Assembly: GCA_965224195.1 (NCBI GenBank)
Contig: OZ245040.1
Coordinates: forward strand, 640,001 to 704,000
Reading direction: 5' to 3'
Source: Nitrosopumilus sp.
GTDB taxonomy: Archaea; Thermoproteota; Nitrososphaeria; Nitrososphaerales; Nitrosopumilaceae
Length of the DNA: 64,000 nucleotides
Part shown: piece after piece, positions 41,580-63,920 of the stretch
Layout of the letters: each line of letters opens with the position of its first letter
How positions within the stretch are numbered: the first letter of the stretch is position 1
Notes under the pieces: generated by a model
What the model was told of the DNA's origin: nothing
Databases searched by the model: none
The model's input: only the letters and a program-made list of their open reading frames with translations
Position numbers and translations under genes: made by a program

Positions 41580-42620
41580 ATAGAGTTCTGATACTAGTCA
41601 ACATCACAGGGTTAATCATTGGAATTTCGTATGGGTTACACGGTCCAATTCTACCAATATTTGCAAAAAATGTCATTGGTGCAACGTATTCCGAACTTGG
41701 TCTAATTGGATTAACCAATTTTATCCCTTACATGTTTATTCCACTTTTTGTAGGGATTCTACTTGATAGAATTAACAACGGATATTTGTTAGCTTTAGGT
41801 GCAGCCATAAATTCTGCATCAATTTATCTGCTATCCATTGCACAATCAGTTCCAGAAATAATGGGGTTTAGAATTATGACAGGTGTAGCTCATGCATTTT
41901 TCTGGCCACCGTGTGAAGCAATTATTTCAAATGAAAGTTCTAAAAAAACAGAGTAAAAAATATCTCATGGTTTACCATGTTTTTTGTAATTGGATTTATG
42001 ATAGGGCCATTACTGGGTACAGCATTACTTGAAGGCCTTGATGTCACATACAGGGTGCTATTCCAAATTGCAGCATTTATTCTCGCTGCTGCAATAATTA
42101 CTTCAGTTGTAGCCTCAAGAAAAAGCGAACAGAGTGACTGCACTGTACCTCAAGTAAAAGGCTGCAATAATTACTTCAGTTGTAGCCTCAAGAAAAAGAG
42201 TAAAAAAACATCACGAGAAATTTTCATTTTCATCAATTAAGAAAATGAAGAGATTTCCAGAAGTGGTAGTGTTGTTGATTTTCTGTACTTCATCGTTTGG
42301 AATAATTCTAACAATTTATCCGGCATTTCTCAATGATAATGGAATGTCTGCATCAGACATTTTGTTATTGTATTTTGTTTTTGGAATTTCGCGTGTTGTA
42401 TCTTTTGCATTAGCAGGAAAATTTGCAAGAAGTACTAGTCAAACTTTGATTGCAGGAACTATTGCAGTATCAGCAGGGCCATAGGGCCAACTATTGGAGA
42501 TCCCATTACACAATCATTTGGAAATGAAACACCGTATGTTGTGTTTTGTATCATAGGAATAAGAGTTACACTATTTGCAATAAGTGCTAGAAAGAAACTA
42601 GAACCACAAAGAATCTCAAA
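41576..42620 (+). pseudogene. MFS transporter, disrupted by a frameshift (~41945), a 73-bp duplication/insertion and an internal deletion (~42480)
   Basis: Consecutive TM-rich fragments, with motif-A-like GILLDRINN. Confidence 0.88.
42088..42198. repeat. Isolated repeat-spacer-repeat unit A (38-bp direct repeat, 35-bp insert)
   Basis: GCTGCAATAATTACTTCAGTTGTAGCCTCAAGAAAAAG at 42088-42125 and 42161-42198. Confidence 0.95.
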
Positions 42621-42750
42621 TTAGATATCCACCGTTCCACATTTTTTAGTCCAAGAATAATTCTCATATTGGATACTCAGTGATGAAATTGATTATTTAG
42701 GCGTAAATTTTGAACATTACGTTTAATTTCAATTTAATAAATATCAAAAC

Positions 42751-43098
42751 ATGTTTGATTATTCGCTAAATATCGGTGGTAGTGAATGGATGATAATTAT
42801 TTTTGTAGCATTGGTTTTGATATTAGGTACAGGGAAATTGCCAGGGGCGGCTAGAAAAATTGGAAAAGCAGTAAATGAATACAATAAAGCCAAAAATGAA
42901 ATTCAAGAGCAAATAAAAGATGTCACAGATGAAGTTCCCAAAATTTCAGGGCCTGTTGAAACAGAACGAGAAAAGTTAGAGATGATTGCAAAATCAGCTG
43001 GAGTAAAAACGGAAGGTAAAACAGATGATGAGATAGGAGAAAGCATTGCATCAAAAATTGGTCAAAAAAGAACGGATGAATCTGAAAAAAAAGAATAG
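42751..43098 (+). CDS. tatA: Twin-arginine translocase TatA/E subunit
   Basis: IGGSEW..I...AL.L.LG..KLP.AARKIGKA..EY.KA. Confidence 0.88.
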   Translation: MFDYSLNIGGSEWMIIIFVALVLILGTGKLPGAARKIGKAVNEYNKAKNEIQEQIKDVTDEVPKISGPVETEREKLEMIAKSAGVKTEGKTDDEIGESIASKIGQKRTDESEKKE

Positions 43099-43099
43099 T

Positions 43100-43876
43100 T
43101 TATTTTGATTTTTTAATTCTATAGATATCCGTATCCAATCGTTTTTTTGCAAATTTGTAATAGTCTGGAACTATTTCAAAACCAAGAAATTTTCTTTTTA
43201 GAGATTTACTAATCACTGCAACTTGACCAGAACCAAGAAATGGATCAAATACCAAATCATTTTTTTCACTAGAATACTCCAACAGTTTTTTAATAATTTC
43301 TGCAGGAAGTTTTGTTGGTGTTTTTTCATCGCCTGTCCAATATTCTCTTTTAATATCCCAGACATCTTCCTTATCTCTATAATGAAGACTCTTACCATCT
43401 TTTGTTTTTTCATCTTTTTTGAACCTAGAAAAAGGGAAAAATTTTCGTTTCTTATCATCTTTGCAAACATAAAGACAGTGATAGTGAGAAGTAACAAATT
43501 TCCTTTTAGTAACTACTCCAAACTGATATTTCCAAATAACATGATTTACAGTCGTAAATCCAATATCGTCTAATGCACGTAAGATATCTTTGAGATTATT
43601 CCAACCTGAAAAAATATACATGCTACCAGAATCCTTTAAAATTCTAAAGATTTCACTCATCCATGCAAATGTGAAATCATAATAATCCTCAGGTTTGATT
43701 TCATTATATCCAGATAACACACTAGAAGAAGTTCGGTTATAATTTGCCTTTTTAGCCTTGAAATTTATTGCAAATGGAGGATCAGTAATTACAAGATCAA
43801 TTTTATTTTTGGGGATTAATTTCATCCCTTCAATACAATTTTGATTGTAAATTTTGTTAATTTCTATTTTTTTCAT
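43100..43876 (-). CDS. Solitary N4/N6 DNA methyltransferase (beta class)
   Basis: DPPF precedes PTKLP and DPFLGSG; no adjacent endonuclease. Confidence 0.92.
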   Translation of the reverse strand: MKKIEINKIYNQNCIEGMKLIPKNKIDLVITDPPFAINFKAKKANYNRTSSSVLSGYNEIKPEDYYDFTFAWMSEIFRILKDSGSMYIFSGWNNLKDILRALDDIGFTTVNHVIWKYQFGVVTKRKFVTSHYHCLYVCKDDKKRKFFPFSRFKKDEKTKDGKSLHYRDKEDVWDIKREYWTGDEKTPTKLPAEIIKKLLEYSSEKNDLVFDPFLGSGQVAVISKSLKRKFLGFEIVPDYYKFAKKRLDTDIYRIKKSK

Positions 43877-43970
43877 TTTTAAATTTAAAATTCTCTTCTA
43901 GCTTAATAATGTCGTGGGTCATAGTACCTATCAAACAATAAATCATCAATAATCCCTTATCAAATAGATC

Positions 43971-46481
43971 TTGAAGTTCTCTTGTCCAAAATGTAAATCA
44001 AAAATTGGTATTCAAAAAACATTCAACAAAAAAATGCATGTTTCTTGTGAAAAATGTGGATTAGAAGATCTGTTAGAGTTTTCAAAAAATGCTGATGAAG
44101 TATTTCTAGAGTTTCTTTCAAGATTTGACAAAGGACTAGTAACTGAAGGAGGGTTATCTGAAGGTCTCAAAGATGAGGGAATTGTGAGGAGAGAAAATGA
44201 AATCAAAGAGATGATAGGCAAAAACAACCCAGATAAAATAACTGAAGAAATTCTGTTTTCAAAAAAAGACTATATTTCACAATACAAGGTTTTGAGTAAT
44301 CCTGAGCCTAAAATGGGCTGTAAAGTAGAAGAATTAGGACTAGATGAATCAATAACTGAACATCTCAAGGAACTAGGAATTGATCAATTTTACAAATTTC
44401 AAGAAGAGGCCATTGAAGAAATTACATTTGGGGAAAATGTTATCATTGAAGCACCCACAGCATCTGGAAAAACAGAAGCATTTTTGATTCCAGTGATTCA
44501 AAGAATAAAAAAAGATGCAAATTATGGGAATGTTTTTGCAATTTTTGTATATCCCACAAAAGCACTAGCTCGTGATCAATATCCAAAAATTCAAAAATTT
44601 GCAGAAAAAATAGGAGTAGATGTCAAAGTCTTTGACGGGGATACAAAACAAGAAGAGCGAAGAGAAATAATTGATAATCCACCTCAAATTCTAATTACAA
44701 ATTTTGATGTTTTACATTATCATATGTGGCATCAAACAAAATTTTCTTCATTGTTATCTTCTACTAGAATTCTCATCACAGATGAGGCGCACGTATATTC
44801 AGGTATTTTTGGAACAAATGTCCATTATATCATAAAAAGACTGAAGCGAATTTGCACCAATAAATTACAATTTGTAGCAGCATCAGCAACTCTTGATGAT
44901 GCAAAAGAATTCTGCCAAAAGTTGTTTGGAGAAAAAATGCAAAAAATTCAAGGTTCAGGTAAAAAAGGAAAAACAGACTTTGTGATGCTTTTCCCATCAC
45001 TGCGAACACAAAGAGCCCTGATGGTAGAGCTGACAAAGAAATTAACTCAAAAAAATCACAAGACAATGGTTTTCAATAATTCACATCTAAATTCAGAACT
45101 TTTGGCAATGCAAGCCAAAAAACAAAAAGTGAACATCAAAGTTCACAGAGCTGGACTAGTGGCAAATTACAGAACATCAGTTGAAAAACAATTCAAAGAA
45201 GACCAATTACAGGCAATCTCATGCACCCCCACGCTGGAATTAGGCATAGATGTGGGCAATGTAGATTGTGTCATATCATCAACCATTCCAGTAAACAGAC
45301 TAATTCAAAGAATAGGGAGAGCAGCTAGAAAAGGTCAGAGAGGCTATGCATTTTTAGCTTTAGGGAATGACCCTATATCACAATATTACAAGAATCATCC
45401 TGATGATTATTTTGAAGATACTGAGAAAACATACATCGACCCCAAGAATCCATTTGTAGAAGAATTTCAAATTTTGGCAATGGCATGCGATAGACCCATT
45501 TCAAAACATGAATTAAAGGAACATCAAGAAGTAATAGAACAGCACATAATTAATGAAAATCTAAAAGAATCCACTAATAGAATCATTCCAAATTTTGATA
45601 AAATCAATTCCATGTTGAGTGAATACAGTATTAGAGGAATTGGTAATTCAATTGATATTTTCTTAGATGGGAAAAAAGTAGGAGACAGAGTATTGCCAAT
45701 TGCACTAGAAGAACTACACAAAGATGCAATCTATTTTCTAGCAGGTATTCGTTACAAGGTAAAGAAATTTGATTATCCAGAAAAAAACTATGCAAAACTA
45801 GAAAGAATTCCAAGAGATTATCCATACTATACAAAATCATTAACAGAAGAATGGCCTACAATTGAAACAGTTTATGAAAGAAGAAAAGCAAACGGTATTG
45901 AAATTGCATTTTGTAAATTACATATTGAAAAAAAGGTATATGGTTATGTCAATATAGAATTAGGACAAGAAATAACACAGGGAGAAAAAGTTCAACTAGA
46001 TTCTCCATTAGAATATGATTTTGTTACCAAAGGAATCGTATTTCATGCACCAAGACCTCTCAAAGTAATTGAAGAATCAGAAGATGAGGAATATACAGAA
46101 GCTAGTGGATACCATGCTACAGAACACGTTGTAATTGAAGGGAGCAATATGATTACAGGTGGAGTTTCCCAGGATTTAGGAGGCATATCATTAGGCACAT
46201 CAGGCTTGATTTTCATCTACGATGGGGCTATTGGTGGAAGTGGTGCAAGTAAAGCCCTCTATGACAGATTTGAAAAAGCACTTGAAAGAAGTATGTTCAT
46301 AGTAAAAGAATGTCCGTGCAAAAATGAATCTGGATGTCCAAGATGTACTTTCTCATATAGATGTGGAAATAACAATGAATATCTACACAAATATTCAGCA
46401 TTAGAGATTCTTAAAAGAATCAATGATGGTGAAGAAACGGTATTAATTGATCCTACTGAAGGAGATAAACCTCTAGTATAA
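43971..46481 (+). CDS. DEAH-box helicase with DUF1998 Zn domain (MrfA/Hrq1-like)
   Basis: Motifs PTASGKT, DEAH, SAT, LELGID.G, QRIGRAAR and C-terminal CPC...GCPRC. Confidence 0.92.
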   Translation: MKFSCPKCKSKIGIQKTFNKKMHVSCEKCGLEDLLEFSKNADEVFLEFLSRFDKGLVTEGGLSEGLKDEGIVRRENEIKEMIGKNNPDKITEEILFSKKDYISQYKVLSNPEPKMGCKVEELGLDESITEHLKELGIDQFYKFQEEAIEEITFGENVIIEAPTASGKTEAFLIPVIQRIKKDANYGNVFAIFVYPTKALARDQYPKIQKFAEKIGVDVKVFDGDTKQEERREIIDNPPQILITNFDVLHYHMWHQTKFSSLLSSTRILITDEAHVYSGIFGTNVHYIIKRLKRICTNKLQFVAASATLDDAKEFCQKLFGEKMQKIQGSGKKGKTDFVMLFPSLRTQRALMVELTKKLTQKNHKTMVFNNSHLNSELLAMQAKKQKVNIKVHRAGLVANYRTSVEKQFKEDQLQAISCTPTLELGIDVGNVDCVISSTIPVNRLIQRIGRAARKGQRGYAFLALGNDPISQYYKNHPDDYFEDTEKTYIDPKNPFVEEFQILAMACDRPISKHELKEHQEVIEQHIINENLKESTNRIIPNFDKINSMLSEYSIRGIGNSIDIFLDGKKVGDRVLPIALEELHKDAIYFLAGIRYKVKKFDYPEKNYAKLERIPRDYPYYTKSLTEEWPTIETVYERRKANGIEIAFCKLHIEKKVYGYVNIELGQEITQGEKVQLDSPLEYDFVTKGIVFHAPRPLKVIEESEDEEYTEASGYHATEHVVIEGSNMITGGVSQDLGGISLGTSGLIFIYDGAIGGSGASKALYDRFEKALERSMFIVKECPCKNESGCPRCTFSYRCGNNNEYLHKYSALEILKRINDGEETVLIDPTEGDKPLV

Positions 46482-46523
46482 CTAATCAAAATGGGATAAA
46501 TATAACAAGAATTTAGAATCATC

Positions 46524-47351
46524 ATGGAAAAAGTAGCTCTTGTTACGGGCAGTTCATCAGGAATTGGATTAGAAACAGCATTATCATTAGCAAGAGATGG
46601 ATATTACACATTTGCCAGTATGAGAAATGTTGGAAAAGCAGGTGAATTAGAACATGCAGCAAAAAAAGAGAATCTTCCAGTTGAAATTATAGAATTAGAT
46701 GTTGATAAAGAAGAATCAATCATTTCTGCAGTCAAAAAAGTTGTTACAAAAAATGGAAGATTAGATGTACTGGTTAACAATGCAGGATATGGTCAATTTG
46801 GATGTACAGAAGATCTAACAATAAATGATTTTAGAAAACAATTTGAAACAAATTTTTTCAGCATTGTGAGAATTATTCAAGAGATTGCCCCAATAATGAG
46901 GAAACAGAATTCAGGCAGTATAATTAACATTAGTTCAGTAGTAGGGAGAATGGGATTACCAGGTTCTCCAGCTTACATTAGTTCAAAATTTGCATTAGAA
47001 GGACTAGGAGAATGTTTGAGATATGAATTAGGTCAATTCGGAATTAAAACTACAATGATTGAACCAGGAGTTATCAAAACTAATTTTTTCAATTCAATGA
47101 AAGTTCCAGAATCAAAGATTGATCCAAAATACAAGACATTAACTGATAATATTTTAGCAGGTCTCAAAATGATGGTAGAAATGGGAACTGCTCCGTCTCA
47201 AGTTGCAGATGTAGTAATGAAGGCAATTCATGATGATGAAATGTTGCCACGATATGTTGTAGGTACGGACGCTGCCATGTTCATGGAGGCAAAAGACAGT
47301 AAAACAGACCTAGAATTTGAGAAATACATGAGTAAAGAGCTATTTCCTTAG
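46524..47351 (+). CDS. Short-chain dehydrogenase/reductase
   Basis: Motifs TGSSSGIG, NNAG and YISSK. Confidence 0.93.
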   Translation: MEKVALVTGSSSGIGLETALSLARDGYYTFASMRNVGKAGELEHAAKKENLPVEIIELDVDKEESIISAVKKVVTKNGRLDVLVNNAGYGQFGCTEDLTINDFRKQFETNFFSIVRIIQEIAPIMRKQNSGSIINISSVVGRMGLPGSPAYISSKFALEGLGECLRYELGQFGIKTTMIEPGVIKTNFFNSMKVPESKIDPKYKTLTDNILAGLKMMVEMGTAPSQVADVVMKAIHDDEMLPRYVVGTDAAMFMEAKDSKTDLEFEKYMSKELFP

Positions 47352-47426
47352 ATTACATCGTACGCTAAATTGATATACAGATAAAGTAGAATTTCATCAA
47401 AGTCCACAATTTTAAGATGAAATGAT

Positions 47427-49079
47427 ATGAAATGGAAAACTCTACAACACAATGGAATCTTATTCCCAGCTGCATATGAGGCCCAAGGAATTAAGATAAA
47501 AATCAAAGGGGAGACTGTAAATCTCAATTTAACCCAAGAAGAAATGGTGTATCAATGGGCCAAAAAGAAAGACACACCATATGCTCAAGATAAAGTATTT
47601 CAGAAAAATTTTACAAATGATTTTGCCAAAGAACTAAAAATTAAAAAATTATCTTATGAAGATATTGATTTTTCAAACGCTTACAAAATAATTGACAAAG
47701 AAAAAGATCTCAAAGAGATGATGAGTAAGGAGGATAAAAAATCCCTTGCTGCAAAAAGAAAAGAATTACGAGAAAAACTGAAAACAAAATATGGAATTGC
47801 CATCATGGATGGAAAAGAAGTCGAGATGGGGAATTACATGGCAGAACCTCCAGGTATTTTCATAGGTAGAGGGGAGCATCCACTCAGAGGAAAATGGAAA
47901 CCCCCTGTTACTTCAAAAGATGTAACTCTGAATATGGATAAAGAAGCAAAAAAATCGATGAAAGGGGAATGGAAGAAAATAATACATGATAATGATTCAA
48001 TGTGGCTTGCAAGTTGGATGGATTTTCTTACACAGAAAAGAAAGTATGTGTGGCTCGCAGATAGTTCGGATCTGAAACAAGGCAGAGACAAAGAAAAGTA
48101 CGAGAAAGCTATCAAGCTTGAAAAAGAAATTGAAAAAATCAAAAAAGCAATGGTCAAAGATATGAAAGACACAAAAAAGAGTAATGTTGCTACTGCATGT
48201 TATTTAATTTATAGGACAGCAATGAGAGTAGGAGACGAAAAAGATCCAGATGAGGCAGATACTGTAGGTGCTACAACCCTAAGAAAAGAACACATCAAGA
48301 TTACTACAGATACAATAGAGTTTGACTTTTTAGGAAAAGATAGTGTAAGATGGCAAGAAACTCTAAAGGCAATTGGTGACGACAAACAATTTCAAGAAAA
48401 TCTCAAAAAATTAATTGAAAAGAAAAAACCAAGTGAGGAGATTTTCCACACCATTACATCTAGAAACGTGAACAAGTATTTTTCAGGAATTGTAAAGGGA
48501 TTAACTGCCAAAGTGTTTAGAACATTCCAAGCAACAACAGTTGTCAAAGACTATCTTGTAAAGCATGATAATATGAAGGGAAAATCTGCAACTGAAAAAA
48601 TATACCATGCAAAATTGGCAAATCTTGAAGCTGCAATGATGTGTAATCATAAAAGAACCATTCCAAAAACATTTGAGCAATCATTACAAAAGAAAAGAGA
48701 TACTCTCAAAAAAGTAGGAAAAGAACAAGTTTGGAAAAAAACCCAAGAAACTCTCAAAAAAGTAGAATCAAGTACTCCTAAAACAGATACTCAAAGGAAA
48801 AGTAAAGTAAAAAGAGTCAAGACATTAAATGAACAAATTAAAAAACAAAAAGTCAAGCAAAAAGAAAGAGTAGAAAAACTAGAATTACAAATTGACTTGT
48901 CTGAAAAAACTAAAGACTACAACATTGGTACATCATTAAGAAATTACATTGATCCTCGTGTTTTCAAAGCCTGGACTGACGAAGTTGGTGCAGAATGGGA
49001 AAAATTGTATACCTCTGCATTACAAAAGAAATTCCTATGGGTTAAAAATGAAAATATCCTCTGGAAGGATATAAAGTAA
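47427..49079 (+). CDS. DNA topoisomerase IB (eukaryote-like, thaumarchaeal)
   Basis: Motifs KWKTLQHNG, GRGEHP.RGKWK, MRVGDEK, FLGKDS, AKVFRT, CNH and GTSLRNYIDPR. Confidence 0.96.
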   Translation: MKWKTLQHNGILFPAAYEAQGIKIKIKGETVNLNLTQEEMVYQWAKKKDTPYAQDKVFQKNFTNDFAKELKIKKLSYEDIDFSNAYKIIDKEKDLKEMMSKEDKKSLAAKRKELREKLKTKYGIAIMDGKEVEMGNYMAEPPGIFIGRGEHPLRGKWKPPVTSKDVTLNMDKEAKKSMKGEWKKIIHDNDSMWLASWMDFLTQKRKYVWLADSSDLKQGRDKEKYEKAIKLEKEIEKIKKAMVKDMKDTKKSNVATACYLIYRTAMRVGDEKDPDEADTVGATTLRKEHIKITTDTIEFDFLGKDSVRWQETLKAIGDDKQFQENLKKLIEKKKPSEEIFHTITSRNVNKYFSGIVKGLTAKVFRTFQATTVVKDYLVKHDNMKGKSATEKIYHAKLANLEAAMMCNHKRTIPKTFEQSLQKKRDTLKKVGKEQVWKKTQETLKKVESSTPKTDTQRKSKVKRVKTLNEQIKKQKVKQKERVEKLELQIDLSEKTKDYNIGTSLRNYIDPRVFKAWTDEVGAEWEKLYTSALQKKFLWVKNENILWKDIK

Positions 49080-49122
49080 AATTAGAATCATTTAATTTCC
49101 CAAATTTTCGACCTAACATCAT

Positions 49123-49237
49123 GCCGGGGTAGCTCAGCCTGGTTAGAGTGCCAGTTCAATTGGTAAACTCTAACGGTTCTCCAACTAAGGCAATACTCAT
49201 AATCTGGAGGTCGCGAGTTCGAAACTCGCCCCCGGCA
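49123..49237 (+). tRNA. tRNA-Met(CAT), probably elongator, with 40-nt intron at non-canonical position 30/31 (49155-49194)
   Basis: Acceptor GCCGGGG/CCCCGGC. After splicing the anticodon arm reads CCAGA-CT-CAT-AA-TCTGG. A BHB motif has central helix TGCC/GGCA with bulges AGT and ATA. Confidence 0.88.
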
Positions 49238-49345
49238 CACATTAATCTCAAATTAAAGATTGGATACCGTACTAGTCACCAAACTATGCAGAACTAGGCA
49301 ATTTTTTACGGTGTCAAACCCAAAGTTCAACACCCTTTGTGAGAA

Positions 49346-49754
49346 TTAAATGGCTCCAGATTTAACATTAAATTGTTCATTCCATTTGTTTGACCATTTG
49401 TTTGCACAATATCCTGTAAATATTGAAAATATTGTTGTAATCATTGATGGAATAACCAACATTACTGGCAATACTGCAAATATCAACATCATTGAGCTTA
49501 TCGATAATCCTATAATCAGAGGAGTAATTCTCAGGGTTTTACCAATTCGTACAAACGGAATAAGTATCAAAAACGGCAAAATCCCATGCAATATGAAACG
49601 TTCAGTTACATACCACAATCCTCCTGCAATTATTTCTAATTCTACTAATGATATATACAAAACAAAACTAATAAGATGAAAGCGCACATAGCCCAAATGT
49701 CAGAATTGTCTGTTGTGTTGGACTGACACTTTTTTTAGATTCAAATATTTTCAT
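49346..49754 (-). pseudogene. Membrane protein, probably frameshifted near its 5' end
   Basis: TM-rich ORF 49346..49696; a plausible N-terminus (MKIFESKKSVSP..Q.IL) lies upstream in another frame. Confidence 0.45.
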
Positions 49755-50121
49755 TTAAACACCTAATTCTTTCATTGTATTCCATTCCAAAAAATTTAGA
49801 GATTGTAGCTTGCCAACAATCAAGCATCCCTATTATGAAAAGCACAAAAATTACAAAGCCAATCAAGAATATAGCATACACAATTTTCCATTTCCTCTCT
49901 CTTTTTTTATGAGTTATTGGCAAAAAGACAATATTCATAAAATAAAATAACCACATACCAATCATTGCAATATTTTGAGTTGCTGCAGAAATGGTTCGCT
50001 CCAGACTTGTTTGCCACATTATCATAGGTAAAATCGTAAAGTATACTGCCCCAATACTTAGAAATCCCACTATTACTATATTGATTAAAAATAAAATGTT
50101 GATATTGTAACTAGTGTTCAT
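49741..50121 (-). CDS. Membrane protein
   Basis: 126 aa with three TM segments. Confidence 0.65.
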   Translation of the reverse strand: MNTSYNINILFLINIVIVGFLSIGAVYFTILPMIMWQTSLERTISAATQNIAMIGMWLFYFMNIVFLPITHKKRERKWKIVYAIFLIGFVIFVLFIIGMLDCWQATISKFFGMEYNERIRCLNENI

Positions 50122-50854
50122 TTTTCTTCTTATCTAATCTTTTTTTAATTGCATATAAGATAATAAAAAATACAATCAAAATTGCACCCAATCCCTCAAT
50201 AATTATAGCAGTAAATGTTCCTAGCATAGTAAAAGTTTCACCAGTCTTAGAGGTAACTGGCTATGATTTATCATGGGTATCAACTGGTAAAGGTTCCTAG
50301 CATAGTAAAAATTTCACCAGTCTGCAAGGATTGTCTATTAAAAATAGAATCATCAATTCGAATATTAGAATTAGATTCTCTAAAATCAAGAGGTTTTGGA
50401 GATTCTGAAACACAAAATCCATTTCTGATCATCATATGTTTTTCACATGAGGTTTTACATTCAAACTAAACATGACAATTGTTGCAACATGATCATCTGA
50501 TTTTTTGGTACTAATTGGATATGGACTTGCATCAAGTAAAATAATTTTGTATGGAGAAAAGAATGTGTATGAATCAGTAGGCATGAAATCAACTGTTTTT
50601 GAATGAATTTGATTTTGAACTTGAATCATAGCAGTTACTTGTCCTCCCCAAACACAAGTAACATCAGAAGGACAACGTGAATCATCTACATCATAAAAAG
50701 TAAATTTAAGATCATCTACATGGATAGTCTGTCCAAGGTGTAATTTGATTTCCTTTTCTGCAAAAGATTCGTTTACCATACTAGTTGAAATTAAAACTGA
50801 AAACACAACTAAAATTATCAAATAATAACTAGTTTTCATTCTATATTTCTCCAT
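50110..50854 (-). pseudogene. Secreted/membrane-anchored protein (DSRCPSDV.CVW.G motif), frameshifted at ~50450 and interrupted by a 76-bp duplication/insertion
   Basis: N-terminal ORF 50432..50854. The downstream frame ...QSLQTGEIFTMLGTF is interrupted and resumes as ...GTFTAIIIEGLGAILIVFFIILYAIKKR. Confidence 0.7.
50211..50322. repeat. Isolated repeat-spacer-repeat unit B (36-bp direct repeat with 2 mismatches, 40-bp insert)
   Basis: Repeats at 50211-50246 and 50287-50322. The first 36 bp of the insert equal 31077-31112. Confidence 0.93.
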
Positions 50855-50903
50855 TAGAGATAGTCATAAAGGGGAATAAAATTGACACTAATAGAGATGA
50901 AAA

Positions 50904-51260
50904 TTAATCTTCTAATTTCTGTTGTAAAACAATAGCATGAATAGGTTTAGGATCCTTTGATGCAGAAAGAAGCGTAATGGTTTTTTGATCATGTATTGTT
51001 TTTTTAATGTCATTTAACGAAGTAAGGTTTTTCTCAATTTCTAAAAGATATTTTTTTTGAAATTTTTCTCTTTTGTCCAGGTTATCATGATACCATTTAC
51101 GCAAATCACTGCTTGGAGTAATTTCTTTTATCCATAAATCAACATTGGCACTTTCTTTTGAAATTCCTCTAGGCCACAGTCTATCTACTAATATTCTGCA
51201 TCCATCGGTTTTTGAATAATCATCATAAATTCTTTTAATTTTAATCATGATTCTTGCCAA
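50904..51260 (-). CDS. DUF488 (YeaO-like) protein
   Basis: IKIKRIYD....DG.RILVDRLWPRG.SKE...DLW.KEI.PS..LRKWY. Confidence 0.92.
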   Translation of the reverse strand: MARIMIKIKRIYDDYSKTDGCRILVDRLWPRGISKESANVDLWIKEITPSSDLRKWYHDNLDKREKFQKKYLLEIEKNLTSLNDIKKTIHDQKTITLLSASKDPKPIHAIVLQQKLED

Positions 51261-54275: not shown

Positions 54276-54335
54276 GTAATATCATACATAATTTCAGTAT
54301 TTCATTGTTGTTCTTTTGAATGGGGCTTTACTTAT

Positions 54336-54873: not shown

Positions 54874-54915
54874 AAATTAATTTTATTTAGATATTTTATT
54901 AAATAGCAAGAATAA

Positions 54916-55137: not shown

Positions 55138-55163
55138 AAATGTAATTAATTATTATTAAAAAT

Positions 55164-56045: not shown

Positions 56046-56100
56046 ATCAATAGATTTTGAACTATAATTTCTTTGATAGTAAAAATCAAGGTAATCTTAA

Positions 56101-57327
56101 ATGGAGTATTTTGGAATTTTATTCAAATTGGGGGAATTTCAAGAATTTGCAGATGCCCTATTTGGGCAACTATCAGTTGAAATTAATGAAGAAAAGGAAA
56201 TTGTAGAGTTAGCAACTAAGGCTAGAGATGATATTGCAAACAAGGTACAATTCAAAGAGTTAGATGATATTGCGACTGAAATATTACCTGATTTTAAAAA
56301 TAAAGTGGAAGAATTTGTAGGAATAAAGATCCCAGAAAATATTTTATTAAAATTTCCAGAATTAGAAGAATTAAAGAGAATTAAAGGAAACAAAGTATTT
56401 GCAGATAAAGAATCAAAAGAGTTTGTCAAAGAATTATTCAATGCAGTTGCAAAAGAAAACCTAACAAAGATTGCAGAGTTGATGCAACAAGATACTGCAA
56501 AATATTTAGTATATTCTACATATGCTATTCAATACATTTCAAAAATTACAACAACATATGGAGATTATTTAGATTCAGAAATTTATTTAAATAAATTCAT
56601 TTTGTCAAGATATCCACAAATAATTCTACATAAACAAGGTGAACCGTATGATTCAAAATTTCAAAATGTTAATTCAGGATATCTAGGAGCAGTAAAAATG
56701 ACAGTTCTTGAGGAATTAATTCATTCAACACAAGAAAACCTTCAACAAGTAAACAAAAGGGCAGCAATGGAAGTAAACAAAATAAATGAAGAACTAGCTA
56801 AAATTATCTTATCATTAGATACTGAAACAATCAACAAATTATCAGAGTATTGTCAATTACAAGCAGTCCCAGATGATTTTCCGTTTGCAAAAAAAGCTAA
56901 TTTATTTTTCTTTTTGAATCCAGATCATTTCTTAATTGAGCAAATAGGTCCAGATGTTATGACATTTACACATGTAGAAATAGATCCTAAAATTGGAGAA
57001 TCAATTCCAGAATTATTAGACATTTACAAGAGATGGCTAGTTCCAATCCAGCAACACCATGCTGCCTTTACTGCAATGGAAGGAATGGCAGCATTTGTTA
57101 TTGAAAATATCTTAAAAGATGATCAAGATTTTCAAAATTATCTATCAACGTTTATGGGAACTGATTTTTCATCATATCAGGTGAGAAAAAGCATGGGTAA
57201 AGACTTTACAAAAATATTATATGAAAAACTGGGCAAAGATACGTTCAAAAAGATGATAGAAATCCCTCCAAACACTAGAGAACTTAAGGATCCTCAACTA
57301 TATCTTAAAAAACTGAGTCTGCAATAA
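56101..57327 (+). CDS. Conserved hypothetical protein (possible zincin-like fold)
   Basis: 408 aa; EELIH..Q and AMEGMA resemble degenerate metallopeptidase motifs. Confidence 0.7.
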   Translation: MEYFGILFKLGEFQEFADALFGQLSVEINEEKEIVELATKARDDIANKVQFKELDDIATEILPDFKNKVEEFVGIKIPENILLKFPELEELKRIKGNKVFADKESKEFVKELFNAVAKENLTKIAELMQQDTAKYLVYSTYAIQYISKITTTYGDYLDSEIYLNKFILSRYPQIILHKQGEPYDSKFQNVNSGYLGAVKMTVLEELIHSTQENLQQVNKRAAMEVNKINEELAKIILSLDTETINKLSEYCQLQAVPDDFPFAKKANLFFFLNPDHFLIEQIGPDVMTFTHVEIDPKIGESIPELLDIYKRWLVPIQQHHAAFTAMEGMAAFVIENILKDDQDFQNYLSTFMGTDFSSYQVRKSMGKDFTKILYEKLGKDTFKKMIEIPPNTRELKDPQLYLKKLSLQ

Positions 57328-58146
57328 TTGGAAGAAAAATTTGATCCATTAGTTGCAGAGTGGCTTGCATTTGTAAACAATCCAAACTACAACATGGTCG
57401 AAAAATGTCTCAAGTTTGCACAAATTTTAGAATATCCAGATCTAAATGTAGATGATTATATTCAAAAAATTAATCACATTGGAAAAGCACTAAAAGAATC
57501 AATTAGCGATGTAAAAAATCCTACATATTTGATTTCAATGTTAAATGAACATCTTTTTGAAAACTTGGGGTTTAGTGGAGACGATGATGACTACTATAAT
57601 CCAAAAAACAATTTTCTAAATGAAGTAATTGATAAAAAAACAGGGCTTCCAATCACTATTTCAATCCTATATGCAGAAATTGCAAAATTTATTGGGTTAG
57701 AATTAAAGATAGTAGGATTTCCAAGTCATATTTTGGTAAAATACAATGAAGAGATGATTTTAGATCCATTTTATGATGGACGTTTACTAGATGTTGATGA
57801 CTTGCAAGATATTCTTGATGCTAATTATGGAGGACAACTAGAATTTAAACCAGAATTTCTTGACGAAGTTAAACCAGAACAAATTCTTGTAAGACTAACA
57901 AGAAACTTGAAAAATTCCTATGTTCAATCATTTGTTTATGAAAAAGCTTTACGTTGTGTAAACATGGTACTAGTTATTGAACCAGAATCTCCTGAAGATA
58001 TTAGAGATAAAGGGATTTTAGAAGAAAGATTACAAAATTTTGAAATTGCTTTAAAATATTTGAATAAATATTTAGAAATAAACCCAAACGCAGAAGATGT
58101 AGACTTTATTTTAGAATTAATTAGAAGTATAAAGACAAAAAATTAA
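57328..58146 (+). CDS. SirB1/transglutaminase-like protein with C-terminal TPR
   Basis: Motifs GFSG...YYNPKN.FLN.V...K.GLPI, VGFP.H.LV, DPF and RDKG. Confidence 0.88.
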   Translation: MEEKFDPLVAEWLAFVNNPNYNMVEKCLKFAQILEYPDLNVDDYIQKINHIGKALKESISDVKNPTYLISMLNEHLFENLGFSGDDDDYYNPKNNFLNEVIDKKTGLPITISILYAEIAKFIGLELKIVGFPSHILVKYNEEMILDPFYDGRLLDVDDLQDILDANYGGQLEFKPEFLDEVKPEQILVRLTRNLKNSYVQSFVYEKALRCVNMVLVIEPESPEDIRDKGILEERLQNFEIALKYLNKYLEINPNAEDVDFILELIRSIKTKN

Positions 58147-58313
58147 TCAATAATTGAATCTACATCAGTTCCTTGTTTGATCATTGAGATTTCATGACGA
58201 GCAATTTTATTTCTTAGTGCTTGTTTGAGGATATCAACTTCGCTTCTAAGTAATGCAATTTCGTCTTCAAGTTTTGCAACTCTCTCATAGATGGTTTCAG
58301 CTTCTGAACTCAT
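58143..58313 (-). CDS. Small coiled-coil protein
   Basis: 56 aa, MSSEAETIYERVAKLEDEIALLRSEVDILK... Confidence 0.65.
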   Translation of the reverse strand: MSSEAETIYERVAKLEDEIALLRSEVDILKQALRNKIARHEISMIKQGTDVDSIID

Positions 58314-58678
58314 AATTATCTATCTGGAAAAATTTGTCTTAAAAAGTTATGGGTAAATGTTTTGATAGACAGGCTAGCTTTTTGAACTATAAGTTAAGGT
58401 AGGAAATACTGACTTTTTCTTTTAATGAGTAACTATGAGATTCAATTTGGCAAGAAATATCTCTGATTTTGGGAATAAAATGAATAGAGATAGGAATGAA
58501 GAATTAATTTAAAAATTAACTAAATTGGTTTTGTAATGCAGTAAGAACCATCAATTCAAACTGACATTTTTCAAATTCCCCATTCAATGTTACAATCTCA
58601 GCGTTAATCAAAGCAATTTGACTTTCAAGTTGAGCAGTTAGCACAGAATCTGATGTGGTAGGGCAATTACAAAAGAAA

Positions 58679-59690
58679 TTAATTCAGATGTGAAAGTAAT
58701 ATTGTAAAAACTGCCCCTCCAGTAGAAGAGTTTTGAGCATAAATTTTACCACTGTGTGCTTTGACTATGTTTTTACAGCTAACTAATCCTATTCCTGTTC
58801 CGGTTTGTTTTGTGGCGTACAATGGCTCAAATATGGTTTCAAGACTATTTTCAGGAATTCCTTCACCACTATCAGTTACAATAATTTTATCAAACATATC
58901 TTCTGTTTCTGAATCCACTTTTATGTTACCTTCATTACTCCCGATAGCTTGAATTGCATTTGAAACTAAATTTATCAAAATATTTTGCATTTGAAATTTA
59001 TCTATCCAAATTTCTTTATCAGTATCTGAAATTATGATTTTAACATTTTTTGAGTGATTAATTATTTTTAGTGTTTCAGATAATAGCCATGAAAATTTCA
59101 CGCTCTCTTTAACAGGGGGTTTCACCTTGACAAAGCTCAAAACTTCATCAATTTGATGGTTCATTCGTAATGCAGCATCTTGTATCCTATCAAAATAATA
59201 CATGTTATTTTTTACTACTGGATTTTTCTTCTTCATAATTTCTAATGAGGTATTTATCACGGTCAGTGGATTTCTCAAATCATGTGTAATTCTTGCAGAT
59301 ATTTCTCCAATAGTAGTTAATCTTTCAGTTTTGATTAGTTCTTTTTGATATGCATCCAATTTTGTACCCAATTCTGAAACCCTTTCAGAAAGTTCATTTA
59401 TTTCACATACCTTTGATGTTGTTTTTTCATTTTTTAAATTACCTTTTGCAATATTGTCTATATTTTTCTTAATTTTTAACACAGGATTACTTATTGATTG
59501 ACTGATATGCACGCCTACGATTGTAGATATCACAACGATAAGAATAGAGATCATGACAACTTTAACAAGAATATTTTGTGTATTGGTATTGATATTTTCG
59601 ATAGAATAATCTACAATTAGCATTCCAATTTTTTCAATTAGAATTATTGGTTTTGATATACGAATTACATCGTCATCTATTTCAAAAATT
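58679..59690 (-). pseudogene. HAMP sensor histidine kinase, 5'-truncated by an IS-associated deletion
   Basis: Motifs HDLRNPL, NL.SNA.QA, D.GEGI and GTGIGL. The N-terminus is replaced by IS transposase sequence. Confidence 0.85.
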
Positions 59691-60179
59691 CTCTTCGCAT
59701 GTGCCATTTCTGTCGCATCCATTTGCCTCTGTTTGCAGCCTTAATTCCAGTGCTGTCAATTGCCAAAATAATTTCATTCTCAGAATCATTATTCATTGAT
59801 TCATCCATCCTGATGTCAAGCTTGTTTATTCTCTTGTGGATTGATGTGAAATCAGGAACTGCTGGAATGCGTCTGGAATATGCACGTATCATCCCTTTCA
59901 GTTTGTCTGAATGGTAATCCAAAATAGATTCTGGCATAACCTAGCAATTTCATAAACGATTCAGGATAGCCTGGACTTTCTACCTCTTTTATTATGATTC
60001 ATGACCTCTAGTTCTTTATGCCAGTTATCAATAACATCAAATGACATGATGATCTCACCCCTTCTGACTAGTTTCTCATTGTATTGACTCCATTGTACCA
60101 TGAAAATAATTAGAATGTGAGATCCAAAGCTATTGTGGTGTAATGATATTGATCAGATTGTTATTTGTTTGACAAAGTA
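59690..60179 (-). mobile_element. Truncated, decayed second copy of the IS5-family element at 35030
   Basis: The left end TACTTTGTCAAACAAATAACAATCTGATCAA and the transposase N-terminus match 35030-35520. Confidence 0.88.
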
Positions 60180-60307
60180 ATGTTTTATCTTGCATACTTG
60201 TGGCAAAAGATCAAAATTTGGCACCGGCCCAGTTAAAGACCTGCAGATCTTCTGGCGTATTTTTTGCCTTGTCAAATGTAACTGTTGAGATGAAACTTTT
60301 TTTGATC

Positions 60308-61741
60308 TCAGAGGTCTTGTGCGCTAAAAAAGTTGCCGTGAAATGAGAATGGCACATGGTGCATAATCTGAGCACGTGCCTGCTCCTCAAATGTGGCCGA
60401 ATCTAGCACTAGCAAGAATGATTTTTTGGAGGATGTGTCAAGGACTATGGACAATATTGCCCCTTCGTCTTCTTTCTCAGAGCCCGGCTTTGGTACAAAT
60501 ACCGGCTCTCCGGGATAGCAGTCTTTCTCTGACCATCCCTTGGTGCTATCATCAGTGATGTCTATCTTTACTAAGCCATCTGCAATGCCATACCCCTTTG
60601 TATCTGCAATGCCGTATACGAACTTGTACACCTTGGTGTTCTTTGACTCGTAGTTTATTCTTGGCAGTTCTACTGGCTGTTCAGACAGTTTGCTCCATGT
60701 CGTGGAACCATCTGGTTTTATTATGTATCGTCTTAGCTCAGATGGGGTCATCTTTTTTGGCGTTGTACTTCCCCTTATCACATCAAGATAGAGATTTGAT
60801 ATGATGTCAGGGTTTTCGTATGCTATTATATCAACAACTATGGAATCATCAGTCTCAAATGCATTGACGTGATGAAATGCAAAAAATGCGTCTGATTTTG
60901 CATAGCGTATGCTGCCATCCTTTCTTGATATTATTATGAATCTGGTTCCCCTTTCCGGCTTCCATACAAAATTTTCAATAAACGGTTTTGATCCAAGCAG
61001 TAAATTCATTGGAGATACGACAAACGGAAACTCTGTAAATATTATATAGTTTTTTGAAAGTGCAAAGCTGTGCATGTATGCCGGCTCTTTTATGCCGTCT
61101 ATCTTTGCTATGATCTGGCGCTCAGCAGCACCGGCTTGTGTCTGGTATGCCATGTAACTGCTTACACGTCCCATCTTTGCCATGTAGCTTATCTGAGATG
61201 AATCATCGTCGTGTGGATGTGCAGAACCGATTTGTGCCTCTTGCAGATCCTTTTGTGAATCAGAGTACTTTATGTGGCCTATGGTCTTTAGCGTGTCTTT
61301 GTCAAATACTATGGGCATTGTAGTCTCAGTTAGCGATACGTACTTGCCGTCAATCATCGCAGTGTTTACATTTGGATTGTCAGTAAAGCGCGACCGTAAA
61401 AATACTGATGTAAACTGCTTGAATATGGACTTGCATGGGTCTGTTGCAAACTCTCTAAGTGATATTTCTTTGTCCTTGTCTGCGCCTTTGTATGCATCAC
61501 TTTCTAAAAATTTGTTAGAGTACTTTACAGCACCCTTGCTAATGTCGTATTTGTGTATCATTGCAAGGCCGTCAAACCAGTGGTTGTACTTTTGCTTGCC
61601 TATCTCAAATTTTGCAGGCCCTGTCCTGAGCAATGTTCCGTGTATCCAATCAGGAATGTTTCCTGTTATCTCTAGCTGGACATCTTGAACTTGGTCATTT
61701 AGTGTCGTGGTTCCCAATATTCCATGGATGCTCATGTACAT
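60308..61741 (-). CDS. Carotenoid cleavage dioxygenase / RPE65 family
   Basis: Motifs HWFDGLAM, FATDPCKSIF, the four Fe-binding His (SAHPH, YMHSF, FHHVNA, FHG), ELPRINY and GEPVFVP...EDEG. Confidence 0.95.
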   Translation of the reverse strand: MYMSIHGILGTTTLNDQVQDVQLEITGNIPDWIHGTLLRTGPAKFEIGKQKYNHWFDGLAMIHKYDISKGAVKYSNKFLESDAYKGADKDKEISLREFATDPCKSIFKQFTSVFLRSRFTDNPNVNTAMIDGKYVSLTETTMPIVFDKDTLKTIGHIKYSDSQKDLQEAQIGSAHPHDDDSSQISYMAKMGRVSSYMAYQTQAGAAERQIIAKIDGIKEPAYMHSFALSKNYIIFTEFPFVVSPMNLLLGSKPFIENFVWKPERGTRFIIISRKDGSIRYAKSDAFFAFHHVNAFETDDSIVVDIIAYENPDIISNLYLDVIRGSTTPKKMTPSELRRYIIKPDGSTTWSKLSEQPVELPRINYESKNTKVYKFVYGIADTKGYGIADGLVKIDITDDSTKGWSEKDCYPGEPVFVPKPGSEKEDEGAILSIVLDTSSKKSFLLVLDSATFEEQARAQIMHHVPFSFHGNFFSAQDL

Positions 61742-61901
61742 GGTGGGTTTCTTGATATTTATAATTCTTGTTGAAAATTACATCAAAAATCCATCTTTAT
61801 CTGCTTGATGAAGAGTTCTCATATCAAATACAAAATACTTTGTTTATCCATATTCCCTAATGTAAATTCGTCAACCCTCTTTTCTTTGCATATGTATCAT
61901 G

Positions 61902-61993
61902 ATCAATTCATCTTAAAACTGATCATCTAGACAAATTATGGTGATCATTTAGATCGATGAATAACGATATCACAGATTAATTCATGCAATTCA
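61902..61993 (+). repeat. IS5-end-derived dispersed repeat (MITE-like), copy 2
   Basis: Aligns with 8811-8901. Confidence 0.75.
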
Positions 61994-62221
61994 AGGAATT
62001 GACTGACAAACAAGGGATATCATAGAACAAGAATCAGATATGAAAGGAACTGTGATAATTATTTATCATTTGTTTACTTGGCATCAATTATGATGTATTG
62101 GTGAGTTTTAGGATAAGTTGCATACAAGGGGGATTGTCCAAACTGTCATGAATAAAAGAAAAATTCAAAATCTATAGTAAGAAATCTGCCTGGTTTTGAC
62201 CAAAGCAAAAAATAAATCAGA

Positions 62222-62575
62222 TTATTTTTTCTTTGATTCTTTTATTCGTCTGACTGCAATCTCTTTTGCAAGTTGGCTGATTAGTCGAACCTGTTTTGAA
62301 TCCAGATTAAGTTTGTACATTATTGCCCTGCCTGATCGTCTGGTTCTAGTTATGAGGGATTCTGATTCAAAAGTTCTTATTTCATTTAGAGCAGTCTTGA
62401 ATGATATTCCAGAGTATCTTGCAATATCTGAAATCGAATAATCATAATCGTCAAACACAATTAGAAAATCCAAAATCTTTGATCTGGAACATGGAAATGC
62501 ATCTTCAAGAGGTCCAAATTCCAGAACTTTTCCATCAATCTCCGGTACTGTTTCAGACACCGTTTCAGACACCAT
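62222..62575 (-). other. Winged-helix DNA-binding protein
   Basis: SRSKILDFL....YDYSISDIARYSGIS..T.......LI..TR..GRA.MYKLN. Confidence 0.8.
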
Positions 62576-62677
62576 GTTATCGGTAACATCAACATGTATT
62601 TATTATTTACTTGGTTCCTCAATATTATGTAATCAGTTTCATAATACTAATATAATTGCTGTGTATTTAGTCACATA

Positions 62678-62920
62678 ATGGAATTGGATTCGACATCGAA
62701 AAAAATCCTCAAGAAAATGCTGCTGCATAACGTATGTGGCGGAAAACATCACGGATTAGATGATTTGAAGAGGGGATTTCCATCCCATGTCAAAGGTGAT
62801 GTGGAAAAAACGATGAAACAGTTGGTAAGAAAGAATTTGGTTTTAAGGCATCCTACGAAATATGGGTTTCAGTATTCGTTAAATCATGATAAAATAGAGA
62901 AGATTGAAAAAATAATATGA
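62678..62920 (+). CDS. Small basic hypothetical protein
   Basis: GGKH...DDL.RGFP.H..G......K.LV.K.LV...PT.YG..YSLN; divergent from the wHTH gene. Confidence 0.65.
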   Translation: MELDSTSKKILKKMLLHNVCGGKHHGLDDLKRGFPSHVKGDVEKTMKQLVRKNLVLRHPTKYGFQYSLNHDKIEKIEKII

Positions 62921-63812
62921 TTTAGGATTTCTGATTCATGGCAAATGTGTCGATATTAGATACAATCACCTTCGCAAGGAAGGGTTTGAGAAGATGTCCT
63001 ATTTACAGAATTGTTTTAAAAAAAAATGGTTGCCCTTTGAATCAGAATTTTTCAAGTTTGGTGGCACTGAAAAAACACATCACTTCAATATCTGTTGATT
63101 CTTTGAGAGATGGTGTGTTGCTGCTTTTTTTGGCAATGTACAGAGAATCTGCTGGCATTTCAACCATTGCTATCCATGCCGTTATCACCAATCTCAGATG
63201 CGGTGCTTGTAATTTTGTTTACAAGATATGCCTGATGGCTCTTTGTTGCAGGAATGACTGCTGCACGTTTAGACTTTTTTTATGAGGGTTTCTGCAAAAA
63301 CAATGTCTTTGTCTTTTGGAGTGTCATTAACAGGACAAGCAACTGCAGACTCATCTTTTGATGGTGCAGGTTTTGAATTGCTAAATAAAATACTGATGCC
63401 TTTAATCGTAAGCCATACGAAATTAGAGTAAGAAATCTTCTCTGGTTTTATTAGTTGGACAATCCTTCTTACAATTTGAACTTGTTTACCATAGTTATGT
63501 TTTGAATTAGTGACTTGTCTGGCGTGATGTCTGCCTCTCTAACCATTGTAAAATGAGCTTAAATCTAGAGTTTAAGGTTTTTTGAAATACTCTGATTGTT
63601 CTCTTTTAGGTACGGCGCTCCCTGCTAGTTCCTCTGGATATCCATTCTCCTTTTTGCGAAAATTATCCCGGATTGTATAGATATCATCCATGGTAATCTC
63701 TGGTTTTGGAGATACAACTATGGTAATTTCTGTATTTTGTCTTGGTATTCCTGGATTTGCATTTGTGCACTGAGGTATGCAGTTTGGCGTTTTTGTACTG
63801 TCATCAGGTGGC

Positions 63813-63920
63813 CTTGATCAATACTAAAAACTATGAATCATCTCAAGTAAGTTTCTCAGCCTCTTCTTTTTCAGAATTCATTTTTCTTGATCAATACTAA
63901 AAACTATGAATCATCTCAAG
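63813..63920. repeat. Isolated repeat-spacer-repeat unit C (35-bp perfect direct repeat, 38-bp insert)
   Basis: CTTGATCAATACTAAAAACTATGAATCATCTCAAG at 63813-63847 and 63886-63920. Confidence 0.95.

Follow-up and report, generated by a model that had tools for sequence, protein, structure and literature searches.

The window analysed here is a 64,000-nucleotide (nt) stretch of the genome of a Nitrosopumilus species (C1:640001-704000; genome label G000; 2,060,248 + 7,434 bases, 33.6% G+C). It holds three short structures, here called units, in each of which a segment of local sequence is directly duplicated around an insert of similar length (Table 1). We describe these units, their counterparts elsewhere in the genome and in related species, and their relation to the resident CRISPR arrays.

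A direct-repeat search over window positions 40000-64000, together with a reading of the letters at the three sites, recovered the three units and no other of this kind in that part of the window. The initial annotation had described a duplication around an insert at three loci, and this geometry was borne out; for unit 2 the reported period of 76 nt stands, and the reported lengths of 36 + 40 nt are corrected to 37 + 39 nt. The three duplicated sequences differ from each other, as had been stated, and the inserts are unrelated as well. Two of the loci had also been placed in ordinary coding DNA, which is not what we find, as only unit 1 falls in a recognisable gene.

Unit 1 interrupts the remains of a gene for a transporter of the major facilitator superfamily (MFS). 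Its orthologue in the nearest sampled relative (G015) is one intact frame of 384 amino acids (aa), whereas the gene in the window is split, so that it would carry at least two lesions besides the 73-nt unit. These apparent frame breaks lie near 41956 and 42484 and may be real lesions or homopolymer errors. Unit 2 is intergenic. Unit 3 is located about 120 nt downstream of a helicase–nuclease open reading frame (ORF), in DNA without long frames, and its left flank has a 90%-identical paralogue (C1:1228125-1228354) that ends just before copy 1. The first 41 kb of the window contain coding tandem repeats only, and no unit of the duplication–insert kind; long examples of these tandem repeats occur at 634-885 (period 12), 27140-27906 (period 153) and 30711-31028 (period 18 nt).

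Unit populations and resident CRISPR arrays

The window itself was said to be free of cas genes, and this is true; yet an array of 90 repeats (A1), with cas2 and a Cas4–Cas1 fusion frame of 557 aa as its neighbours, begins 3.2 kb past the window end. The 1043-aa helicase–nuclease frame (window 63966-64000 and onward, C1:703966-704655) sits between unit 3 and A1 and leaves the window in the direction of the CRISPR-Cas locus, of which it is taken here as a neighbour only. Two more arrays, A2 and A3, each have separate cas4, cas1 and cas2 genes beside them (Table 1). An adaptation module elsewhere in the genome had been predicted, and there are three, each at an array: three Cas1, three Cas2 and three adjacent Cas4 matches are all above curated cut-offs. 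As these are the only Cas1 matches and each lies beside an array, the genome contains no casposon. A Cas3-family helicase match occurs at most about 7 kb from each array; those at A2 and A3 exceed the curated cut-off, and the one at A1 falls short of it. In the same genome, the DevR/Cas7 (PF01905) profile gave no match and the Csm1 profile gave a sub-threshold match only. A fourth Cas3-core helicase match (C1:1235102-1236196, in an 843-aa frame, above the curated cut-off) has no Cas1 nearby. Also far from cas genes, an orphan remnant (C1:1626225-1626320) carries a degenerate repeat like those of A1 and of a related species (G051, see below), a spacer of ~40 nt and a partial second repeat.

We scanned the genome for local direct repeats using 14-nt seeds at distances of at most 400 nt, followed by chaining, and filtered for isolated two-copy repeats of 32-46 nt at a spacing of 69-77 nt. 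Genome-wide, the filter yielded 36 candidates, 34 of which were kept as solitary units. The other two, at 131912 and 433387, were dropped as short-period tandem repeats; apart from these 36, candidates at 1074068 and 1219572 were dropped as coding repeats. The duplications of the 34 units measure 32, 34, 35 (two units), 36 (eight), 37 (ten), 38 (seven), 39 (three), 42 and 43 nt, and the inserts 32-39 nt with a mode of 35-36. The periods are 70 (two units), 71 (four), 72 (seven), 73 (eleven), 74 (six), 75 (three) and 76 (one), with a mean of 72.8. Copies are identical in 23 pairs, differ by one mismatch in nine and by two mismatches in two. Three further units, found by eye among excluded multi-pair groups, bring the total to about 37, in keeping with the early expectation that many such events would exist genome-wide. 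No unit among the 37 has expanded into an array of several spacers.

The unit dimensions match those of two of the three arrays. Repeats of A1 and A3 are 36 and 37 nt long with spacers of 35-37 nt, and 28 of the 34 duplications are 36-39 nt long; chance matches at the borders may lengthen an apparent duplication by 1-2 nt. Array repeat length had been named as a check on the proposal of spacer integration, as had the genome-wide size distribution, which was set as the decisive one. We scanned separately all spacings from 36 to 130 nt, using 30-nt windows with at least 27 matches and with the arrays masked. Spacings not divisible by three hold zero or one near-repeat (30-46 nt) each, except 70, 71, 73, 74 and 76, which hold 2, 3, 10, 5 and 2, respectively; spacings divisible by three are filled by coding tandem repeats (60, 78, 120 and others). 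Because the non-multiples of three are nearly empty outside 70-76, the size distribution is sharply peaked on the period of A1 and A3, well above what chance would give. An in-frame bias of the unit periods was considered and rejected, as 10 of the 34 are multiples of three and the chance share is about one third.

Two of the units found by eye (C1:912673 and C1:1228750) have a 30-nt duplication, which matches the 30-nt repeat of A2. One of them is part of a pair: at C1:912527-912768, two units with periods of 76 and 66 lie ~70 nt apart, which may reflect a local hot spot or two different modules acting at one place.

Table 1 Features of the window and the wider genome. Coordinates without the prefix C1 are window positions, except where they follow a C1 position in the same cell.
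Feature	Position	Strand	Description
Unit 1, copy 1	42088-42125		38 nt, in broken MFS-transporter gene; sequence single-copy in relatives
Unit 1, insert	42126-42160		35 nt, unique
Unit 1, copy 2	42161-42198		38 nt, 100% identical to copy 1; spacing 73
Unit 2, copy 1	50211-50247		37 nt, between two minus-strand ORFs
Unit 2, insert	50248-50286		39 nt, copied from a multi-copy gene family in the same genome
Unit 2, copy 2	50287-50323		37 nt, 2 mismatches to copy 1; spacing 76
Unit 3, copy 1	63813-63847		35 nt, in ORF-poor remnant
Unit 3, insert	63848-63885		38 nt, unique
Unit 3, copy 2	63886-63920		35 nt, 100% identical to copy 1; spacing 73
Extra unit	C1:912527		Duplication 36 nt, insert 40 nt, period 76
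Extra unit	C1:912673		Duplication 30 nt, insert 36 nt, period 66; A2 geometry
Extra unit	C1:1228750		Duplication 30 nt, insert 39 nt
Units with self-derived inserts	C1:173581, 690211 (window unit 2), 886994, 898236, 907258, 911485, 1277616, 1892823
Possible protospacer of unit-2 insert	31078-31112	+	35 nt, 100% identical; one of several paralogues
Array A1	C1:707205-713740		90-91 repeats of 36 nt, spacers mostly 36-37 nt, mean period 73.03
Array A2	C1:942056-946530		68 repeats of 30 nt, spacers 36-37 nt, mean period 66.3
Array A3	C1:1457180-1466783		132 repeats of 37 nt, spacers 35-36 nt, mean period 73.02
Empty paralogue	C1:1363425 vs 924226		Gap 73 nt
Empty paralogue	C1:1639458 vs 1227309		Gap 71 nt
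Empty paralogue	C1:1892823 vs 44940 and vs 1019919		Gap 74 nt
Empty paralogue	C1:1973078 vs 1091939		Gap 73 nt
Empty paralogue	C1:1692970 vs 920707		Gap 73 nt
MFS-transporter pseudogene with unit 1	41576-42484	+	Frames of 126, 87 and 79 aa
Helicase–nuclease frame, 3' part	63966-64000	-	1043 aa, Cas4-like domain

Empty sites and read-derived contigs

Sites without the insertion exist both inside and outside the genome. Five units have paralogues with a single copy of the target, in which the flanks are 94-99% identical and the alignment gap is exactly one period (Table 1). Among relatives, where empty alleles had been suggested as a check, they are present for units 1 and 2 and for the units at C1:173581 and C1:886994. 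Unit 1 is empty in 16 of 18 genomes of the same genus: the 38-mer occurs once, the insert is absent and the matches of the two flanks overlap by 23-40 nt. Alignment of this site to G015, G012 and G017 leaves an exact gap of 73 columns. The unit at C1:173581 is empty in four of five relatives and that at C1:886994 in all five. For unit 2, G015 has one homologous copy directly before the homologue of the right flank, an alignment read by eye, the automatic gap being misplaced. At a further unit (C1:739057), the matches of relatives stop at the unit and do not resume.

Public reads provide a view of two of the window sites. Among 23 public runs, X20 and X21, which share one organism label and one study, hold 99% of the sampled words of window positions 41500-51000; X22, under another label, holds 66% of them. 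The contigs of these runs were built straight from the reads by a different assembler than that of the genome. In both X20 and X21, a 95-nt contig (42096-42190) spans copy 1, insert and copy 2 of unit 1 with no differences. At unit 2, contigs of X20 end at 50246 and start at 50293, and another contig covers 50247-50322, whereas in X22 a contig (49756-50276) crosses copy 1 into the insert. Spanning of the units by reads had been asked for as a safeguard, and read-derived contigs do cross unit 1 fully and the junctions of unit 2.

One 16.7-kb contig of X21 passes from 50235 straight to 50312, leaving out exactly 76 nt, and is otherwise identical to the window. Between the two copies of unit 2, the mismatches fall at positions 6 and 25, and any 31-mer within the 37-nt copy covers position 25; hence no 31-mer is common to both copies. 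If the contigs were built with 31-nt words, as we take them to have been, the contig that skips the unit cannot have arisen from the filled allele as an artefact of the assembly graph. X21 thus holds an empty allele of unit 2, bearing the sequence of copy 1. The difference from X20 and X22 may stem from a fresh insertion or from loss by recombination between the copies. Elsewhere in this region, contigs of X20 and X21 end loosely at 43095 and 43867, which mark the borders of a 258-aa minus-strand ORF (43100-43876), and a further contig, lower in depth and about 91% identical, stops at 43095; this ORF seems to be missing or replaced in some related sequence or variant.

Inserts, target sites and related species

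The units are independent events. All-against-all comparison shows that the 34 inserts are mutually unrelated (longest common word, 11 nt), as are the 34 duplicated sequences (10 nt). Having no common sequence, the inserts are not copies of a mobile element, and a transposable element with target-site duplication was rejected because no conserved element sequence recurs and the inserts are all different. The inserts are also unrelated to their targets, and the longest word that they share with any of the 287 array spacers is 14 nt. Their G+C content is 40.5%, compared with 40.4-42.3% for array spacers and 33.6% for the genome.

Eight of the 34 inserts match distant loci of their own genome, at 96-100% over 28-39 nt (Table 1), whereas none of the 287 array spacers has a comparable self match (longest, 24 nt with two mismatches). 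This difference is expected if the arrays have been purged of self-targeting spacers and the inserts, with their arbitrary flanks, never acted as guides. For example, the insert of unit 2 is identical over 35 of its 39 nt to C1:671078 (window 31078), C1:1016704 and C1:1603115, and matches C1:809918 at 38 of 39 nt. The 18-nt tandem array at 30711-31028 adjoins one of these paralogous sources. The inserts of units 1 and 3 have no second copy in the genome.

Searches outside the genome were less productive. Exact 25-29-nt cores of six inserts, including that of unit 1 and, with a 29-nt core, that of unit 3, had no matches in viral contigs, and neither did exact cores of two genuine leader-proximal array spacers. 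Because genuine spacers fail too, the viral contigs evidently miss the invaders of this host and the negative result for the inserts is uninformative. A 65-nt stretch around the insert of unit 1, compared with 400 genomes of the family, gave only matches of 18-25 nt to the duplicated part. As none of the 287 array spacers has a known target, the arrays yield no protospacer-adjacent motif (PAM).

The dinucleotide CT directly precedes the duplicated segment at 15 of 68 junctions (5.4% expected). Counted by unit, it does so in 14 of 34 (10.6% expected; p = 4e-6, or 6e-5 corrected for 16 dinucleotides), for a motif that was picked post hoc, after inspection of the data. CT recurs in six of the ten units of two other species (G051 and G083, see below), and the leader of A1 likewise ends in CT before the first repeat. 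The units are unevenly distributed along the chromosome: the 508 kb from C1:173581 to C1:682088 contain none (P = 0.003 for the largest gap).

Surviving units lie preferentially in ORF-poor DNA. When the unit is removed in silico, the median length of the longest frame spanning the site is 119 aa, compared with 299 aa at 3,000 random positions (p = 7e-7), and this frame is shorter than 150 aa at 59% of unit sites compared with 24% of random sites. Some genes are nevertheless broken. A short-chain dehydrogenase/reductase (SDR) is cut at 207 aa by one unit, an IS4/5 transposase is split between its two domains by another, and frames of 327/120, 287/88, 197/117 and 265/116 aa rejoin to 414, 324, 284 and 276 aa without the unit. 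Some units with a period that is a multiple of three sit in frame within long proteins, including a DsbA-like one and one of 1136 aa that combines a beta-propeller with a cupredoxin domain. The proposal of a gene-inactivating mutator thus holds for the broken genes and only in part overall, because the survivors concentrate in ORF-poor DNA. In our reading, integration is promiscuous and selection removed insertions in needed genes; given such selection, the mutational burden would be real and under-represented by the surviving record.

Among 80 further genomes of the genus, 29 carry Cas1. One of these (G051) has only the module type with the Cas4–Cas1 fusion; its array counts 131 repeats, each 36 nt long, and its mean period is 72.9. 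In the 1.6 of 2.39 Mb that were scanned, we identified six units, with duplications and periods of 36/73, 37/72, 37/71, 32/72, 33/72 and 37/72; two have self-derived inserts and one has single-copy target paralogues. Five candidates (481088, 677192, 840946, 1890924 and 1892456) were dropped because they belong to a dispersed 72-nt tandem-repeat family, and another (1331582) because it is a multi-copy repeat; one candidate (1010790, 32 + 45) is undecided and was kept out of the count. The 72-nt tandem family occurs at more than 15 loci of the C1 contig of G051 (for example, 430825-431007, 1406734-1406988 and 1838668-1838994) and mimics the geometry of units, so that it would mislead a naive scan.

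In a second species (G083), the other Cas1 type is the sole one, and the 67 array repeats are 36 nt long at a shorter mean period of 71.3. Four units were found in the 1.0 of 1.70 Mb scanned (37/71, 36/71, 35/69 and 35/69), one of them about 600 nt beyond the array. Their shorter periods follow the shorter array period (Mann–Whitney against the units of G000, p = 0.002, with n = 4 in G083). As each of these two species has a single module type, both kinds of module seem able to make units. Attribution of the G000 units to one module was tried and rejected, given that A1 and A3 cannot be told apart by period (73.03 and 73.02) and that both types occur alone in unit-bearing species.

Probable off-target integration and its alternatives

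In canonical adaptation, a pair of transesterifications, separated by one repeat length, inserts a new spacer, and subsequent gap filling leaves a copy of the repeat on either side of it. The units resemble the product of this reaction in that the duplication has the length of a repeat, the insert has the length of a spacer and the periods match A1 and A3. They differ in that they have neither leader nor array repeat, their targets are arbitrary, and self-derived inserts are found among them (8 of 34, compared with 0 of 287 array spacers). On the basis of these sequence comparisons, we infer that the three loci of the window are very probably products of off-target (non-canonical) spacer integration by Cas1–Cas2, and that the genome contains at least 34 such products, and probably 37 with those recognized by eye. 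None of the four outcomes that the initial annotation had named as contradicting its proposal was found.

The Cas1–Cas2 integrase, carrying a spacer-sized fragment, would normally attack both ends of the leader-proximal repeat. At the unit sites, its attack would instead have fallen on ordinary chromosomal DNA, at one point on each strand with about 36-37 nt between them, after which gap filling would have copied the intervening target on both sides of the fragment. The predicted product is a target copy, an insert and a second target copy, with a period equal to the repeat-plus-spacer period of the arrays of the same genome. The two cas4/cas1/cas2 sets that serve the arrays with 36-nt and 37-nt repeats are most likely responsible, and the module of the 30-nt repeat array left at most two footprints. 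Because the flanking 'repeats' are arbitrary local sequence, the inserts would not work as CRISPR spacers, and self-derived inserts would therefore be tolerated.

Several other origins deserve consideration. Because all units of G000 come from one assembly, of which X20 and X21 are possibly the source data, the duplications and inserts could in principle have been made by the assembler or by chimeric reads. We give this a very slight probability: contigs from a different assembler contain the junctions of units 1 and 2, 11 of the 34 copy pairs differ by one or two bases, which would not be expected of a computational duplication, the same geometry occurs in assemblies of two other species, and the sizes match the organism's own CRISPR period. 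Replication slippage, which would view each unit as 1.5 copies of a 73-nt tandem repeat, draws on the abundance of coding tandem repeats in this genome (periods 60, 72, 78 and 120 nt) and on the fact that two of the first 36 candidates were such repeats and had to be dropped. It is hardly credible for the remainder, as empty sites in paralogues and relatives hold the target only and never the insert, no allele with a single target and insert was seen in the comparisons made, the insert was copied from a locus tens to hundreds of kilobases away in eight units, and 24 of the 34 periods are not multiples of three.

The repeat–spacer–repeat geometry might also indicate working one-spacer mini-arrays that serve immunity or gene regulation, and one true orphan remnant with an A1-like repeat does exist (C1:1626225). 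However, each 'repeat' is a different piece of local coding or intergenic sequence that is single-copy in paralogues and relatives, no unit resembles the three array repeats beyond a weak similarity at the ends, and eight inserts would target the host's own genome; we consider such a function highly unlikely. A process unrelated to Cas proteins, or a family of tiny mobile elements that uses staggered cuts about 36 nt apart, is somewhat easier to accommodate, given that Cas catalysis is deduced indirectly and that no PAM was found, and yet it too is improbable. The inserts have no common sequence, terminal repeats or family; the lengths of duplication and insert equal those of the resident repeats and spacers and shift with the array period in G083; and the only three Cas1 homologues all lie beside arrays. 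Known transposons make target duplications of 2-15 bp, and casposons reach kilobase size, carry terminal inverted repeats and duplicate about 14-15 bp of target, unlike the 32-40-nt inserts here, which have no such repeats and occur in a genome with no solo Cas1.

Some observations weigh against off-target integration, or fit it imperfectly. A few units have odd duplication lengths (42, 43, 46 and 49 nt); C1:923061, 1129510, 798295, 1619794 and 196381 measure 46 + 34, 49 + 29, 43 + 32, 42 + 33 and 25 + 37, respectively, and such proportions may reflect a slipping ruler or another origin. Copies differ by one or two mismatches in 11 of 34 units, and unit 2 is polymorphic and yet has two mismatches, contrary to what would be predicted for a clean duplication of very recent date. 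The likeness of target ends to repeat ends, which the initial annotation had described as loose, is present but weak, at about 0.25 bit per position at most; it is best for the A1 repeat at its leader-distal end (p = 5e-4 compared with 20,000 random sites). No PAM consensus emerged from the flanks of the eight self-derived sources, taken without a defined insert orientation, and no source was found for 26 of the 34 inserts. X20 and X21 may be the source data of the genome assembly, in which case they exclude an assembler artefact and are not independent samples. A genome without Cas1 (G059) gave no candidates of any kind in the 200 kb scanned, which agrees with off-target integration, but as a control has low power.

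Off-target integration itself is already known. Nivala, Shipman and Church (Nat Microbiol 2018) reportedly saw it in the E. coli type I-E system, where a repeat-length target is said to be duplicated to give a repeat–spacer–repeat structure with a new 'repeat' (a 'neo-CRISPR') in events that were reportedly rare. In E. coli, according to PMC7054753, Cas1–Cas2 was over-produced and oligonucleotides were supplied; PMC6698737, PMC11788318 and PMC9456107 also cite that work. The units resemble those events in that a spacer-sized fragment was placed outside an array. The differences are that a natural genome carries about 37 fixed events, with more in two sister species, that alleles without the insert are found and that one site varies between read sets. 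For natural genomes, a citing preprint speaks only of 'circumstantial evidence' of off-target integration in two other species (bioRxiv 10.1101/148544).

Other systems show related behaviour. Pyrococcus furiosus Cas1–Cas2 integrates in vitro into non-CRISPR DNA that shares some features of the repeat, and the authors of that study propose that off-target sites reveal what the integrase recognizes (PMC6698737). Its targets were plasmids in vitro, whereas the events described here are chromosomal and filtered by selection, and the sole clear feature shared by the units is CT before the duplicated segment. In Sulfolobus, a regulator is proposed to restrain Cas1 from integrating outside arrays (PMC9456107). 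Ectopic acquisition in Streptococcus thermophilus (PMC7999890) is similar in that the integrase misses the leader-proximal repeat, and differs in using a true repeat inside the array, whereas the units lie far from any repeat. Casposases (PMC8464041 and PMC4046053) are Cas1-family integrases that likewise make a target-site duplication.

What is new here is a natural and unusually rich instance and not a new kind of process. Our literature search found no description of dozens of natural solitary off-target units in an archaeal or any other wild genome. Beyond what the experiments give, the units comprise dozens of events in nature for which empty sites serve as exact controls. One of the sites varies among read sets that carry a single organism label, and the pattern recurs in two sister species whose adaptation modules differ. 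The units also matter for annotation: CRISPR finders may report units as tiny arrays, and gene callers will report frameshifted genes.

On the interpretation favoured here, the units show collateral damage from CRISPR adaptation as it occurs in nature, where such a view is rare. They make testable the chromosomal cost of adaptation to the host, the recognition of DNA by an archaeal integrase when the leader is absent and the self fraction of raw acquisitions before selection (here, 8 of 34 compared with 0 of 287 in the arrays). More tentatively, off-target integration could be a standing natural activity of type I adaptation modules across the genus, ongoing in culture, as suggested by the difference in unit-2 alleles between two read sets of one organism label; we regard this as a serious possibility that falls short of being probable. 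If it is true, the solitary units would be an unselected record of captures by the integrase, and the contrast between about a quarter of self captures in units and none in arrays would directly measure the autoimmune purging of self spacers. The mismatches in 11 of the 34 units would then be marks of error-prone gap filling at integration and not of age, and the units would represent both a mutational cost of keeping CRISPR that can be measured and material from which new arrays could form.

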